A DNA stretch of 64,000 nt from Candidatus Rokuibacteriota bacterium (GTDB taxonomy: Bacteria; JAUVQV01; DATDCY01): contig JANOHV010000007.1 of the NCBI GenBank assembly GCA_031406795.1, positions 48,574 to 112,573 of the forward strand. The letters are read 5' to 3'. This document shows positions 183-5,815 of this stretch, in pieces. Below the pieces are notes generated by a model, which did no database searches, had not been told where the DNA came from, and worked only from the letters and a program-made list of their open reading frames with translations. How positions within the stretch are numbered: the stretch's first letter is position 1; every line of letters starts with the position of its first letter. A program made the position numbers and the translations under genes.

Positions 183-1064
183 TTACGGCAAGGGGAACGT
201 AAGCGGAGTGCAACCGATTCCTCGCCAGAATCCAGCAATGGCGATGATGGTCGCTTCCACTTCCTCAAAGGTGCAACCGTCCTTCGGGATAACGCGGCTC
301 GCCTCGAAAGTGGCTCTTGTGACCGCCCAGTCTTCCATGAAGCTGTCCAATCCGGAGCAATCGACATAACGGGATTCGCAAGCGAGCTGAAACTCTTGGC
401 CCGCGATGGTCCAGAACTCGGTCTTGGAAATCGGTTTGGCCCTGATGATTCTGGTGAGATCGTACAGGTCCTTCACGCGGACGGCTTCCCCCGGCTTCTT
501 CATCTTTGCCCGATAGGCCGGCAGGGTGCTGAGATAGGCGCGGGCCTTTTCGCCGGCGATGCGTTCCAGGGTGTAGGCCCTGATCGGGACACCATCTATG
601 TCCAGGTCAGCGATCGACCGTTCAGACAACTCCTCGGGGGCCGCCACATCGATTTTAACATTCGGCAATCCCCTGCCACCGGCATGTTTGTGGTCGATCA
701 GGGAGACCGCAATGGCAAAGGCGTTCCATTCTCGGGGATGCTGCTTCTCCGGGCTCGACGCGATGCTCAATCTCTTCAGCTCGTACCGCACGGGGTCTTG
801 CGATTCGAAGTGCCGTGAAATAGCTCTCCCTATATGCTCCTCGAGGAAGGCCTTCTGTCCCTCCCTGTCGGGGTGCAGCTTCGCAAAATCCACGTCGAGA
901 TTGGCGTCGATGTCGAGGGACATCCTCGGCGTCCCCAGTCGCCGATTGAGGACCAAGGCCCCCTTGAAGACGAGGCTGTCCCTCAGGTCTCGACTCTTCG
1001 CCAACGCCAGCAGGATGTGGTTGATCGCCTCGAATCGCCATTCTTCCTGCTGAGATGGATTCAT
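183..1064 (-). CDS. abiEii: AbiEii/AbiGii-family nucleotidyltransferase toxin (DUF1814), type IV TA / abortive infection
   Basis: ORF 183..1175, trimmed to the internal ATG at 1064 (MNPSQQ...). Contains the FKGALVL motif (KGGTAL-like), an SLDID acidic motif and ERIAGEKARA typical of AbiEii. Its ATG lies 1 nt after the upstream gene's stop (TGAgATG). Confidence 0.75.
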   Translation of the reverse strand: MNPSQQEEWRFEAINHILLALAKSRDLRDSLVFKGALVLNRRLGTPRMSLDIDANLDVDFAKLHPDREGQKAFLEEHIGRAISRHFESQDPVRYELKRLSIASSPEKQHPREWNAFAIAVSLIDHKHAGGRGLPNVKIDVAAPEELSERSIADLDIDGVPIRAYTLERIAGEKARAYLSTLPAYRAKMKKPGEAVRVKDLYDLTRIIRAKPISKTEFWTIAGQEFQLACESRYVDCSGLDSFMEDWAVTRATFEASRVIPKDGCTFEEVEATIIAIAGFWRGIGCTPLTFPLP

Positions 1065-2043: not shown

Positions 2044-2059
2044 GGTGTGTCTTTTGATG

Positions 2060-2104
2060 CCCTCCACTTGATACGCTTGCGAAGCAAGCGTATCAAGTGG
2101 AGGG
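2060..2104. repeat. Perfect palindrome: 21-bp arms around a GAA loop (CCCTCCACTTGATACGCTTGC-GAA-GCAAGCGTATCAAGTGGAGGG); its centre is the GCGAAGC mini-hairpin motif
   Basis: Seen directly, 17 bp upstream of the abiEi start. Confidence 0.9.
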
Positions 2105-2189
2105 CATCGCGTCAAGCCAAAAACATTGATGCCATAATATAGACAAATGTCTCATGGAGAAAGATGACGGCAGCTGGATACTCTAGCTA

Positions 2190-2242
2190 GATGAGACCCC
2201 GTTGATAGGCTGGCGAAGCCAGCCTATCAACGGGGTCTCATC
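2190..2242. repeat. Second perfect palindrome: 25-bp arms around a GAA loop (GATGAGACCCCGTTGATAGGCTGGC-GAA-GCCAGCCTATCAACGGGGTCTCATC). Shares the TTGATAsGCTkGC-GAA core with the first.
   Basis: Seen directly. The arms are related to but distinct from those of the 2060-2104 palindrome. Confidence 0.9.
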
Positions 2243-2444
2243 ATGTCAAGCCTAACCCGGCGCGTCCTGCATTTTCAACGGCAGCCTGGTTGGCGTCAGC
2301 CGGCTATGCCGGTGGCGCAGCATCCCTTGGCTTTTTCCTGAGCGGCAGGAACGCGAGGATGATTTCTCTCCGCGCGCGGACCTTACGTCCAACCCTGTCA
2401 AGAAGCCCGAGGCTGACGAGAGCGTTCACATCCCGTCGGCAAGA

Positions 2445-2579
2445 TCACCCAAAGATTAGCGAGATGAGCTGATCCTTGGTGATTTTTCTCTGGTCGGCAA
2501 TGTCGCCGAGCATCGCCGAGAGTGTTCCCACGCGGATCGGGTCATGATTCGGCACCGTGACATGGTGTTCAGGCGCTGA
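2445..2579 (-). pseudogene. HicA-like toxin remnant (C-terminal half only, no start codon, catalytic N-terminal half absent)
   Basis: Minus-strand frame reads ...HHVTVPNHDPIRVGTLSAMLGDIADQRK..., matching the HicA C-terminal pattern TVP-H...GTL..IL. It overlaps the 3' end of the HicB-like gene; there is no upstream ORF for the His-containing N-terminal half. Confidence 0.35.
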
Positions 2580-2775
2580 TCACTTCCTCGCGTACGAAGT
2601 GCAGACGGATAATCCGCGGCTCCTGCCCGGGTTCGAAGTGGCAGTGCACGGCATCACGAACATGGGTATGGAGTTGCTCGACGGAGTCCGCCTCGGTGAA
2701 TATGGATACTCCGAGAGCTCGCGCCTCATAGCCGCCCTCGGAGGATTCCGACACCATGAAAATCAGTTCGTTCAT
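2569..2775 (-). CDS. HicB-like / UPF0150-family antitoxin-like small protein (68 aa)
   Basis: Sequence LIFMVSESSEGGYEARALGVSIFTEADSVEQLHTHVRDAVHCHF resembles the HicB N-terminal domain (..EDGGYVVSVPDLPGCHTQGDTLEEALENAKEAI..). Its start overlaps the hsdS stop. Confidence 0.45.
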   Translation of the reverse strand: MNELIFMVSESSEGGYEARALGVSIFTEADSVEQLHTHVRDAVHCHFEPGQEPRIIRLHFVREEVISA

Positions 2776-4379
2776 CGTCTCCTCCCAATCAATTCGTCAA
2801 TCTTTGCCACAATCCGGTGCTGTTCGGCGATGGGAGGAATTGGGATCCGTACCAACTTTAGATTGGAGGCGCTGATACCCCAATTCCCAACCGTCGTCGC
2901 ACAATAAGTTTCTATGTCTTCACGTACTACTGCTGATTTAGCAAACCATCGAACAAGTTCCGGAAGGACGATCCTTGTAGACAAACGGAGGCGGATAAGC
3001 TTATCCGGAAAGATCTGACGTAAACCCAGGTAGCCGGTGTACAGGGAAAGGCGACCTACAAAGTCTCGATTACCATTGAAACGGCATGCCAGGAGATCAC
3101 CGGGTTTTAGGCTGAATTGCTCCTGGAGTTTGCGAGTTATCCCGCCAATGAGTTTATATTCTTCTTCAGCAACAATTCCGTCTCTTCTGATTGTCCCAGC
3201 GCTAATACGAAGGATCGGAACTCCATTTGTTGCCTCGTCTGGCTTCTTGGAATATCCGTTTCGGGAGTCGTCAAGGAGTATGTCCTCAATCCTGACCCAT
3301 TCCCAACCAGACGGAAGCTGAAGAGGTTGAATCTTCCCACCTTCTTGGGTCACCGATTCCTGACGTATCGCTCGGTCTGCTGATTTTAGTTGATCGTTCG
3401 CTGAACGTGTCCGCCCCAAAAGGGTAGCGACAGGCTCGTTCCTTGAATCCTGGGGGACGAGTTTGCCGCGAACGGCTAGGTTTAGGATGGTTTTGCGGAG
3501 TTGGTGGATGTGTTCGGGACGGGTGGTGAGGCGCGGGAGGTAGTTGAAGTAGAAGCGGGCGCTCTCCTCGAAGGTGGTGGGGGCGCCGGGTGTCTGGGTG
3601 GCGTCGCCGTTGTTCAGGCCGTGGAGAGTTGCCGCCACCAGGCGGTCGCGGCGCTTCTCGCGTTTGGTTTGCGCCGCCTCCAGTTCGTCGCACAGCGCCA
3701 TCAGCTCGTCCACCTTCGCCACGATTCGGCGTTGCTCGGCGAGGGGCGGAAGTGGAATTGCCGCGGCTCTTAGAAGTTTGAAATGGCGACCATACCCACG
3801 GCTGTCCAGTGGCAACCATCTGAGCGCGAGATAGTAAAATTCTGTCAGCACGCCAAGGGGATGAAGGAGTTTCACGCCATCTGCCCCGACTACGAAGTCA
3901 AAGTCGATTAGTTTTGTTTCTCGTGTATGGTCACCAAACAGGATGATCGGCGCATCAACATGGATGACTTTATGCTGATCGTTGCAATAACCCCTGATGA
4001 AAACCTTGCCTTGGTCGACTACAGGGAAAGCACCCGATTCCAAAACATCCTTTGTCTGAACCTTTTTCCCCATGTCCGAGATCAGATATGCTGGAAAAGT
4101 GGCAGGAACCCATTCCCATGTCGGCGGAATCTCGAACGGCATCTCTGATCTTTCAATCGACTCGAACGGCTCTTGGCTTCTGATCTCCCCGGCCTTCACC
4201 AGCTTCGTTTTCTCAGCCTGAATTTGTTTCAGCAACTCCCCCGCCGGCTCATCCTTCGGATCCTGCTCCACGAGCTTTCCGCGCACGGCCAGATCCAGGA
4301 TGAATCTTCGGAGGCGCGGGACGGCCTCGGGGGTGTCGATGAGACGATCGAAATGTTCGAGGAGGCGGGCGGGACTCAT
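2772..4379 (-). CDS. hsdS: Type I restriction-modification specificity subunit HsdS (two target-recognition domains)
   Basis: Long ORF 2772..4793; the real start is ATG 4379 (MSPARLLEHFDRL...), which overlaps the hsdM stop as ATGA. Shows the conserved HsdS repeat LAEQRRIVAKVDELMALCDELE / IAEQHRIVAKIDELIGRRR after each TRD. Confidence 0.85.
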   Translation of the reverse strand: MSPARLLEHFDRLIDTPEAVPRLRRFILDLAVRGKLVEQDPKDEPAGELLKQIQAEKTKLVKAGEIRSQEPFESIERSEMPFEIPPTWEWVPATFPAYLISDMGKKVQTKDVLESGAFPVVDQGKVFIRGYCNDQHKVIHVDAPIILFGDHTRETKLIDFDFVVGADGVKLLHPLGVLTEFYYLALRWLPLDSRGYGRHFKLLRAAAIPLPPLAEQRRIVAKVDELMALCDELEAAQTKREKRRDRLVAATLHGLNNGDATQTPGAPTTFEESARFYFNYLPRLTTRPEHIHQLRKTILNLAVRGKLVPQDSRNEPVATLLGRTRSANDQLKSADRAIRQESVTQEGGKIQPLQLPSGWEWVRIEDILLDDSRNGYSKKPDEATNGVPILRISAGTIRRDGIVAEEEYKLIGGITRKLQEQFSLKPGDLLACRFNGNRDFVGRLSLYTGYLGLRQIFPDKLIRLRLSTRIVLPELVRWFAKSAVVREDIETYCATTVGNWGISASNLKLVRIPIPPIAEQHRIVAKIDELIGRRR

Positions 4380-5815
4380 CGCAGCAGCGCCTGCTCCAGA
4401 ATGGCCTTGAGTTTGTCGCGGAGCTTTGCCGTCGCGGCCTCGCTCTCGTTGAGTTTGGCGAGCAGCTCGGCGGGATCGCCGTGGTCTTCCTCGACGGTGT
4501 GGGGATTCTTGATGTCGAGGTTGTAGCCGCGGGCCTTGATGTCGTCGATCGTGACCTTCCAGGCGATCTCGTTCTTCTCGCGCTTGTCCCACCAGTCGAT
4601 GCAGGGCTTGAAGTGCTCGAAGCGGATCGGCCTGGTCATGGAGTAGGCCTTCTGGCCGTCGGGGACGCGGTGCTCGTAGAACCAGACGGTTTGGGTCGGC
4701 GTCCCCTTCTCGAAGAAGAGCAGGTTGGTGCCGATGGAGGCGTAGGGCTTGAAGACGCTGTTGGGCAGCCGGACGATGGTGTGGAGGTTGCACTCCTCCA
4801 GCAGGTGCTCCTTGAGGCGCGTCTTGACCCCCTCGCCGAAGAGCGTGCCGTCGGGCAAGACCACGGCGGCGCGGCCCTGGGACTTGAGCAGGCGCACGAT
4901 GAGGGCGAGGAAGAGGTCGGCGGTCTCGCGCGTCTGGAACTGCTACGGGAAGTTGCTCTCGATGCCGTCTTCCTCGCGGCCACCGAAGGGGGGATTGGTC
5001 AGGACGATGTCCACCCGGTCGGACTGGGTGTAGCTGGTGTAGGGGCGCGCCAGGGTGTTGTCGTGACGGACGAAGGAGGGGTCCTCGATGCCGTGGAGCA
5101 GCATGTTCGTCACGCAGAGCATGTGCGGGAGCTGTTTCTTCTCGGTGGCGCGCAGGGCTCCCTGCATCTTACGTTCGGCGGCCGGGGTCTTCACGTAGCG
5201 CTCGCGCATGTGGCGGATGGCGCAGGTGAGGAAGCCGCCGGTGCCGCATGCGGGATCGTAGAGGATCTCGCCGGGCTTCGGGTCGATGCGGTCGGCCATG
5301 AAGGCGGTGACGGCGCGCGGGGTGTAGTACTCGCCCGCGTTGCCGGCGCTCTGGAGGTCGGTGAGGACCTGTTCGTAGATGTCGCCGAAGTGCTGACGCT
5401 CGCTGAGGTTGTTGAAGTCGATGCCGTTGATCTTGTTGATCACCTGGCGCATCAGCTGACCGGACTTCATGCAGTTGTAGGCGTCCTCGAAGACGTCGCG
5501 CACGACGCGGCGCCGGCCGTCCCGGGCGACGCCGGAGAGTTCCTTAAGGGTCGGGAAGAGCTTGTCGTTGATGAAGGCGAGCAGCGCATCGCCGGTCAGC
5601 CCCTCGGGGTCGGCGGCCCAGGCGCGCCACTGGAGCTTGGCCGGGATCGGCGAGCGGTAGCCCTTCTGGAGCTGCTCCAGCTCCTGGTCCTGGTCGTCGA
5701 TGATCTTGAGGAAGAACATCCAGCAGAGCTGGGAGATGCGCTGGGCGTCGCCGTCGACGCCGACGTCCTGGCGAATGATGTCCTGGATGGATTTGACGGT
5801 GGTGCGGACGGACAA
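4376..5815 (-). pseudogene. hsdM: Type I R-M N6-adenine methyltransferase HsdM, interrupted by one in-frame amber codon (TAG at 4943-4945)
   Basis: ORFs 4943..5815 (HsdM N-terminal domain, ..TNPPFGGREEDGIESNFP*) and 4376..4897 (..GRAAVVLPDGTLFGEG..) are in the same frame. Reading through the TAG gives FP*QFQTRETADLFLALIVRLLKSQGRAAVVLPDG, a colinear HsdM. TTG start with AAGGAAGAG SD. Confidence 0.7.

Follow-up and report, generated by a model that had tools for sequence, protein, structure and literature searches.

The window analysed here is a 64,000-nucleotide (nt) stretch of a Candidatus Rokuibacteriota bacterium genome (GenBank assembly GCA_031406795.1, contig JANOHV010000007.1, positions 48,574 to 112,573). 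Near its start it carries the abiEi and abiEii genes of an AbiE toxin-antitoxin module and, directly upstream of abiEi, two long, perfectly self-complementary palindromes, which are the subject of this study. All genes of this region lie on the minus strand, referred to below as the gene strand. Related loci sampled for comparison are designated L followed by a number. The features of the module are:

183..1064, minus strand: abiEii, encoding a DUF1814 nucleotidyltransferase toxin (Pfam AbiEii, E = 3.7e-20); its ATG lies 1 nt past the abiEi stop codon
1066..2043, minus strand: abiEi, encoding an antitoxin and presumed repressor of 325 amino acids (aa; PADLOC AbiEi, E = 2.7e-17)
2056..2108, no strand: proximal perfect palindrome, 25+3+25, GATGCCCTCCACTTGATACGCTTGC-TTC-... 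on the gene strand, -31.8 kcal/mol; candidate for the main AbiEi operator
2081..2083, no strand: centre triplet of the proximal palindrome, GAA on the plus strand; predicted transcription start at ~2080
2087..2092, minus strand: -10 box TACGCT of the predicted proximal promoter, within the palindrome arm
2109..2189, minus strand: A/T-rich spacer of 81 nt between the palindromes, with an UP-element-like T-tract upstream of the proximal -35 box; poorly conserved among relatives
2110..2115, minus strand: -35 box TTGACG of the predicted proximal promoter, 1 nt off the palindrome edge
2190..2242, no strand: distal perfect palindrome, 25+3+25, GATGAGACCCCGTTGATAGGCTGGC-TTC-... on the gene strand, -32.0 kcal/mol, z ~-13; candidate for a second AbiEi operator
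2215..2217, no strand: centre triplet of the distal palindrome, GAA on the plus strand and TTC on the gene strand, within the GCGAAGC mini-hairpin motif; predicted transcription start at ~2214
2221..2226, minus strand: -10 box TAGGCT of the predicted distal promoter, within the palindrome arm, 17 nt past the -35 box
2244..2249, minus strand: -35 box TTGACA of the predicted distal promoter, 1 nt off the palindrome edge, conserved in position; the homology with L083 starts exactly here

Both palindromes consist of two 25-nt arms around a 3-nt centre (53 base pairs (bp) each), and their arms are 100% complementary. The initial annotation had described a pair of 45 and 53 bp; two perfect palindromes are indeed present, although the first of them, given as 45 bp with 21-bp arms starting at 2060, had been measured 4 bp too short on each arm. 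Its other descriptive points agree with our reading: both palindromes are centred on GC-GAA-GC (plus strand), they have TTGATAsGCTkGC in common, and they are related without being identical, their arms differing at 8 of 25 positions with each difference mirrored in the partner arm. The likeness of the two copies runs past the palindromes into GTCAAGCC on the plus strand, i.e. the -35 box of the gene strand, and the flanking stretch GGCTTGAC prolongs it outside both of them. Within the window, the shared core pattern occurs at these two sites only (0 occurrences are expected from shuffled sequences), and no further long perfect palindromes were found in its 64 kb. Folded as single-stranded DNA, each palindrome reaches -31.8 to -32.0 kcal/mol (z = -12.5 to -13.9). 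Scans of the whole window with Rfam (gathering thresholds) and for tRNA genes gave zero matches and zero genes, respectively. The abiEi ATG occupies positions 2043-2041; the proximal palindrome ends 12 nt away from it and the distal one 199 nt upstream.

The comparison covered 80 metagenomic loci and ten more from named relatives, one of them an isolate, Malonomonas rubra DSM 5091 (L090; FQZT01000011). A zero-mismatch search revealed 151 perfect palindromes in 85 loci (AbiEi identity of 34-90%), 66 of which carry two. These palindromes represent 119 distinct sequences with 103 distinct arms and 2,689 paired positions, and their arms measure 24-29 nt and their centres 0-4 nt. All 151 are located upstream of abiEi (the distal copy of L060 at ~420 nt from the start codon), and none was found away from this region in ~0.36 Mb of locus sequence. 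The possibility that the perfect symmetry is an artefact of how the arms were measured was rejected, since the same ~0.36 Mb contains no perfect inverted repeats with 15-21-nt arms and, right beyond the arms, complementarity is no higher than chance. Only two imperfect copies, with 2 and 1 mismatches, were encountered. Perfect orthologues of the distal palindrome of the window are present in L086 and L083, with the changes mirrored, and perfect orthologues of the proximal one in L083-L089 and L100. The same architecture, with unrelated outer arm sequences, was found in an Aminicenantales metagenome-assembled genome, whose AbiEi is 51% identical.

The homology of the window with its relatives starts at the distal -35 box (2250, L083), at the proximal promoter (2117, the single-palindrome relative L085) or inside the proximal palindrome (2100, L088), and it stops at the abiEii stop codon. 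Since homology thus extends from the promoter to the end of abiEii and the neighbours vary, the palindromes belong to a mobile promoter-abiEi-abiEii module. What lies upstream changes from locus to locus, which leaves AbiEi as the sole conserved candidate that could read the palindromes sequence-specifically. The inner arms of distal and proximal palindromes are closer to each other within a locus than between lineages (permutation test, 122/10000), which lends modest support to a common reader.

Several loci show individual histories of the module. L100 (GCA_041643095.1, JBGGHE010000009; 3690-3765), a 90%-identical relative, has lost the distal palindrome together with 36 nt and retains an orphan TTGACA; the loss is an 89-nt deletion between CATGAG direct repeats, a classical palindrome-stimulated deletion. 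Two near-identical 58-bp palindromes of L060 (1521-1578 and 1832-1889), with three arm differences and 311 nt apart, suggest that the promoter-operator module was recently duplicated in tandem. In L087 (1380-3164; 87% identical), a DDE_Tnp_1 transposase gene lies 218 nt past the abiEi stop codon and the homology with the window ends ~160 nt into abiEii, so that abiEi and its palindrome have apparently been orphaned. Among loci with 2 kb of upstream DNA, L021 (VAPA010354591.1) alone lacks palindromes: neither a perfect nor an imperfect one lies within the 500 nt ahead of its abiEi homologue.

A promoter of its own is predicted for each palindrome, a point that the initial annotation had missed. 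In the window, the -35 and -10 boxes (the latter of the form TAnnnT) are separated on the gene strand by exactly 17 nt, and the symmetry centre lies 4-5 nt past the -10 box and hence approximately where transcription should start. With starts at the centre, the module's own transcript would hold the promoter-distal arm only, and that arm of the proximal palindrome would constitute the first ~25 nt of the 5' untranslated region. The same anatomy recurs among the 123 distinct palindrome contexts of the related loci. The -35 box is TTGACA in 89 of them, and TTGAC is present in 112 (vs 6.8% of random 45-nt stretches); in most contexts, 0-2 nt separate its end from the palindrome. A 17-nt spacer follows in 111/123, and the -10 box is mostly TAnGCT, the five commonest hexamers (all TAnnCT) covering 111/123. 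The centre is positioned 3.5-5.5 nt past the -10 box in most contexts and at 13-13.5 nt in 25 of 56 distal ones; the distal copies of one clade are displaced by about 9-11 nt.

The arms have evolved in an unusual manner. Their inner ~9 nt are nearly invariant and positions 10-22 vary freely, and the variation is almost completely symmetrical: a minimum spanning tree of related arms requires at least 183 mirrored substitutions (81 transitions and 102 transversions), as against 3 mismatches in total. For the proximal palindrome, every arm difference is mirrored in 15 of 15 pairwise comparisons (window, L083 and L085-L088). Within the clade of the window, whose proteins are 76-90% identical, divergence averages 0.33 in the outer 12 nt and 0.31 at third codon positions (means of the per-pair values). 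No G:T pair occurs among the 2,689 paired positions, which means that the constraint acts on DNA and not on RNA. Protein binding alone fails to explain perfect symmetry at positions that vary freely. Compensation driven by selection only should run slower than the neutral rate and leave intermediates, whereas conversion of one arm by the other after a mutation yields a neutral rate without intermediates. Template switching is known to perfect stems and to generate multi-base compensatory changes, stem extensions and loop inversions (PMC8794818; PMC7202029). This signature is present here in the mirrored substitutions (>=183, i.e. at least that number), the 15 mirrored comparisons, 14 inversions of the centre (see below) and perfect palindromes of 74-84 bp with 37-42-nt arms (L032:1-84, L034:1657-1732 and 1746-1823, L044:332-405), which include a -35-like hexamer, as if they had grown outward across the -35 box. 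The pattern of sequence change suggests that template switching through hairpins homogenises the arms.

The centres behave differently from the arms. Among loci that are 95-100% identical (mean mismatch of 1.7%), the central 2-3 nt differ at 36.6% per nucleotide, and 14 of the 43 differing centres are exact inversions, i.e. reverse complements of each other. L056 and L058, for instance, have only 3 differences in 1760 nt but the centres ATA and TAT, respectively; comparisons among L055, L056, L058, L059, L074 and L076 (99.5-99.8% identical over 1.7-3.3 kb) gave centres ATA/TAT, AA/AT, TT/AA and TTC/AAA. Judged from such close relatives, the palindrome centres are mutational hotspots with exact inversions. 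Their composition is also biased: GNA or its complement TNC occupies the centre of 39 of 71 distinct odd-length palindromes (12.5% expected, P ~1e-17; 18 vs 21 on the two strands), the centre is closed by C:G in 65/71, and the reverse polarity, ANG/CNT, occurs in 0/71. DNA of the sequence d(GCGNAGC) forms the classical extra-stable mini-hairpin (PMC13037366, PMC3201870); the GC-GNA-GC pattern is present at both centres of the window as GCGAAGC and is enriched across the family. The mini-hairpins described by Hirao and co-workers (PMC13037366) are short isolated motifs, whereas here the motif would cap a 25-bp stem. The mutational behaviour has counterparts in quasipalindrome and template-switch hotspots (Ripley; Lovett; Monttinen & Loytynoja 2022, PMC8794818; PMC7202029), with which the palindromes share mirrored multi-base changes, loop inversion, stem extension and deletion between short direct repeats. 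Those are, however, mutational events in assay or RNA genes, and here they are a standing, family-wide trait of a regulatory DNA site.

The protein encoded directly downstream of the palindromes was examined by structure prediction. The AlphaFold (AF2) model of AbiEi (predicted local distance difference test, pLDDT, of 80) retrieved with Foldseek only two significant PDB matches, 6Y8Q (AbiEi of Streptococcus agalactiae; 1.2e-5) and 1ZEL (Rv2827c of Mycobacterium tuberculosis; 5e-5). The latter is the best full-length structural match and aligns end to end with a TM value of about 0.5. According to the model, the protein downstream of the palindromes has the AbiEi/Rv2827c fold. An additional N-terminal DNA-binding domain, considered as a means of reading 25 bp, was rejected, as the model aligns end to end with Rv2827c. 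Pfam gave zero matches for AbiEi, as did a profile built from the AbiEi alignment when run against PDB sequences, and the two PDB relatives, AbiEi and Rv2827c, surfaced by fold search only. A tblastn search of PLSDB plasmids with AbiEi also gave zero matches.

Two systems offer a close parallel. AbiEi of S. agalactiae binds a 23-N3-23 inverted repeat (IR1/IR2, with 4 mismatches) that overlaps its own promoter and represses it, in a negative autoregulation with one monomer per repeat (Dy et al. 2014, PMC3985639). The S. agalactiae PabiE operator (Dy et al. 2014; Hampton et al. 2018) and the window share a long inverted repeat directly upstream of an abiEi-abiEii bicistronic unit (25-N3-25 in the window) and a cognate two-domain AbiEi (N-terminal winged helix, C-terminal antitoxicity domain), which is of the same fold in our model. 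The overlap of the S. agalactiae repeat with a sigma-70 promoter would have its counterpart in the promoters predicted here. The differences are that S. agalactiae has one repeat pair and the window two; that the arms of the former have 4 mismatches and a perfect outer part of 11 bp, whereas here they are perfect throughout with the inner part conserved; that the -35 box lies within IR1 there and just outside the palindrome here, with the centre near +1; and that AbiEi has 196 aa in S. agalactiae and 325 aa here, the latter not recognised by Pfam. The second parallel is Rv2827c, which binds two inverted-repeat pairs (Beck et al. 2020, PMC7319586). Prv2827c of M. tuberculosis and the window share two repeat pairs within ~130-200 bp upstream of the gene for an AbiEi-like antitoxin of ~300 aa; the overlap of the gene-nearest pair with the promoter and the four binding sites, which allow graded autoregulation, are predicted for the window. 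The gaps differ, amounting to 13 bp within a pair and 4 bp between pairs in M. tuberculosis and to 3 bp and 81 bp in the window; moreover, each pair has its own -35/-10 boxes here, and the mycobacterial repeats are imperfect. The window thus joins the 3-bp geometry of the S. agalactiae operator to the two-pair layout of Rv2827c.

Taken together, the two palindromes are probably tandem promoter-operators of abiEi-abiEii, i.e. candidate AbiEi autoregulatory sites whose outer arms are apparently homogenised by hairpin-mediated template switching. An AbiEi operator had been among the readings proposed initially, and the comparative evidence favours it: in ~0.36 Mb of locus sequence the palindromes occur upstream of abiEi only, at 85 loci, a conserved predicted promoter overlaps them, the protein has the AbiEi fold, the geometry resembles that of the S. 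agalactiae operator, and the twin arrangement recalls Rv2827c. We infer binding by AbiEi from this architecture and from the protein fold, and the sites are treated as candidate operators. Each module would contain a sigma-70-type promoter (TTGACr, 17-nt spacer, TAsGCT) overlapped by the operator from ~-30 to +25, with one arm of the palindrome supplying everything from the spacer through the -10 box to the start region and the other arm the first ~25 nt of the transcript. One AbiEi winged-helix monomer would bind each arm, base-specific reading being most likely limited to the conserved inner ~9-13 nt (TTGATAsGCTkGC), and occupancy would block RNA polymerase, giving graded negative autoregulation through up to four sites per locus. 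The outer arm halves would be kept complementary by template switching or arm-to-arm conversion during replication, which would copy a change in one arm to the other and flip or scramble the centre. The palindrome may extend in this way until an essential flank is reached, namely the -35 box or the start codon.

Several observations weigh against this interpretation. The palindromes have no sequence similarity to the repeats of S. agalactiae or Rv2827c (for the arms and the S. agalactiae repeats, as compared by eye). In S. agalactiae, conservation is stronger in the outer portion of the repeat, which makes it uncertain which half of the arm AbiEi reads here. A generic consensus promoter scan of 1900-2800 gave zero calls on both strands, beside the conserved TTGACA-17-TAnGCT that abuts or overlaps every palindrome; the -10 box fits TATAAT at only 3 of 6 positions (T1, A2 and T6), which accounts for the empty scan, and the promoter call consequently rests on conservation. 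The model does not account for a second, tandem promoter, which several relatives lack. Clade-specific operator cores follow clade-specific recognition helices, and some different helices share one core; this covariation of helix and operator core was set aside as evidence because it is confounded by shared ancestry. Finally, a purely mutational model does not predict the polarity-specific excess of C-GNA-G, and the hairpin itself may be selected.

This last point leads to a competing explanation, which we regard as unlikely though the strongest of the alternatives: the functional species would be a cruciform or hairpin extruded over the -10/+1 region, acting as a structure-dependent promoter switch or sensor, with AbiEi binding secondary or structure-specific. 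The symmetry is held where the sequence is free, the lack of G:T pairs indicates that Watson-Crick pairing is constrained at the DNA level, C-GNA-G loops are in excess (39/71) with ANG/CNT never found and d(GCGNAGC) being extra-stable, and the hypermutable, flipping centres indicate that the arms interact in vivo. Template switching alone, however, gives perfect stems and loop inversions without any structural function (PMC8794818), many palindromes have non-GNA or even-length centres, and extrusion of a G+C-rich 53-bp palindrome in vivo is not assured. The cues might be supercoiling, single-stranded DNA or phage structure-specific nucleases. In its full form, for which our expectation is equally low, the perfect palindromes would be selected to extrude over -10/+1, the promoters would be switches or baits tying toxin-antitoxin expression to DNA topology, replication state or phage nucleases, and repression by AbiEi would come as an additional layer; promoter strength would also be tuned by the hypermutable, invertible centre, in the manner of a contingency locus.

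An RNA hairpin is less probable still. Here, transcripts reading through from hsd/hic or from the distal promoter would fold the 25-bp proximal stem, which would hide the 5' untranslated region, Shine-Dalgarno sequence and start codon or be cut by RNase III, leaving only transcripts begun at the palindrome centre to be translated. Gene order on one strand makes read-through plausible, and in several lineages the promoter-distal arm does hold a Shine-Dalgarno sequence and start codon (AGGAAGACTCATGA in L004-L008, ...GGGGAAGACACTGTG in a distant clade); the arm in the window, however, contains no Shine-Dalgarno sequence and stops 12 nt short of the start codon. Stems of RNA tolerate G:U, yet 0 G:T were found in 2,689 pairs despite 81 mirrored transitions, the distal palindrome has no gene to mask, and the predicted starts leave one arm out of the module's own transcript. 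That the palindromes are dispersed repeats, i.e. repetitive extragenic palindromes (REP), bacterial interspersed mosaic elements (BIME) or miniature inverted-repeat transposable elements (MITE), or else recombination or transposition sites (attC-like or IS200/IS605-type hairpins) mobilising abiE, is very improbable, even if the palindromes conserve structure while varying in sequence and mark the 5' boundary of a module that recurs in many genomic surroundings, as such elements would. There are two copies in 64 kb, and those in the ~0.36 Mb of related loci are restricted to the abiEi upstream region; no palindrome follows abiEii, and the related loci have no conserved recombinase neighbour. 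Integron attC or similar hairpin-type sites combine an imperfect palindrome and extrahelical bases with conserved R/L boxes and a neighbouring integrase or HUH transposase, whereas the present stems are perfect. The REP/MITE and recombination alternatives of the initial annotation thus fail for want of dispersed copies in the window and related loci and of a recombinase. A scan of viral contigs with the promoter-plus-core pattern returned 0 matches; 8 matches to the core only were dismissed as chance, all having 6-nt arms. Hardest of all to credit are intrinsic (bidirectional) terminators ending the upstream restriction-modification/hic unit: very stable stem-loops do stand between two gene groups, but neither strand has a T-tract after the stem, the scan of 1900-2800 contains no terminator-like site, a conserved -35/-10 pair abuts every copy, and the elements move with abiE into unrelated contexts.

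For the window alone, the promoter-operator interpretation gives an ordinary answer, the regulatory region of an AbiE defence module. An AbiEi operator is of a known kind; the tandem layout with one promoter per palindrome is new, as are the family-wide perfect symmetry with mirrored drift at a neutral rate, the hypermutable, invertible centre and the GNA-loop bias, and none of these features was found in the AbiE literature searched. The promoter-operator is kept perfect at ~53 bp across phyla as half of each arm drifts at a nearly neutral rate and its centre changes and inverts ~20-fold faster than neighbouring DNA. The pattern is a clean example from nature of concerted evolution inside a regulatory site, template switching at replication being its simplest explanation, and it raises the question of hairpin or cruciform DNA in the control of an abortive-infection system. 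In practice, TTGACA followed by a 25-N3-25 perfect palindrome with a TAnGCTTGC-type core is a DNA signature for finding abiE modules and their promoters. The operator core is predicted to be the inner ~21-29 bp, and M. rubra DSM 5091 is a cultured organism carrying such a locus and suited to testing.

Upstream of the distal promoter lie gene remnants. The initial annotation described a non-coding gap formed by the palindromes and a HicA remnant; that gap holds a second gene remnant, of a Fic gene, and the palindromes go with the abiE module and not with the hicA side. The Fic remnant (2304-2429, minus strand; ...VNALVSLGLLDRVGRKVRARREIILAFLPLRKKPRDAAPPA*, the C-terminal ~41 aa) lies between the HicA-like remnant and the distal promoter. 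An intact Fic gene is present directly upstream of abiE in L086 (HPYGDGNGR motif), the same C-terminal piece in L100, and a gene with a Pfam Fic match upstream in Malonomonas (L090). Fic was nonetheless rejected as a conserved partner of abiE, the strict Fic motif occurring in 3 of 91 loci, in addition to the L090 gene and the L100 piece. The HicA label (2455-2566, minus strand) is based on a weak Pfam match (E = 0.023, below threshold) of a 40-aa C-terminal fragment without a start codon, and the 68-aa open reading frame (ORF) presumed to encode HicB (2569-2775, minus strand) has no Pfam or PADLOC match.

Farther upstream, hsdM contains an in-frame stop codon (4943-4945, minus strand; ...NPPFGGREEDGIESNFP*QFQTRETADLF...) that splits the type I methylase into the ORFs 4943-5815 and 4376-4897; either hsdM is a pseudogene or the stop reflects an error of sequencing. 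It is overlapped by a long, spurious N-terminal extension of the hsdS ORF (2772-4793). The first ~9 kb of the window, where abiE, both gene remnants and the genes for type I restriction-modification are located, have a G+C content of 54-64%, vs 65-72% for most of the window, which fits a horizontally acquired defence island.

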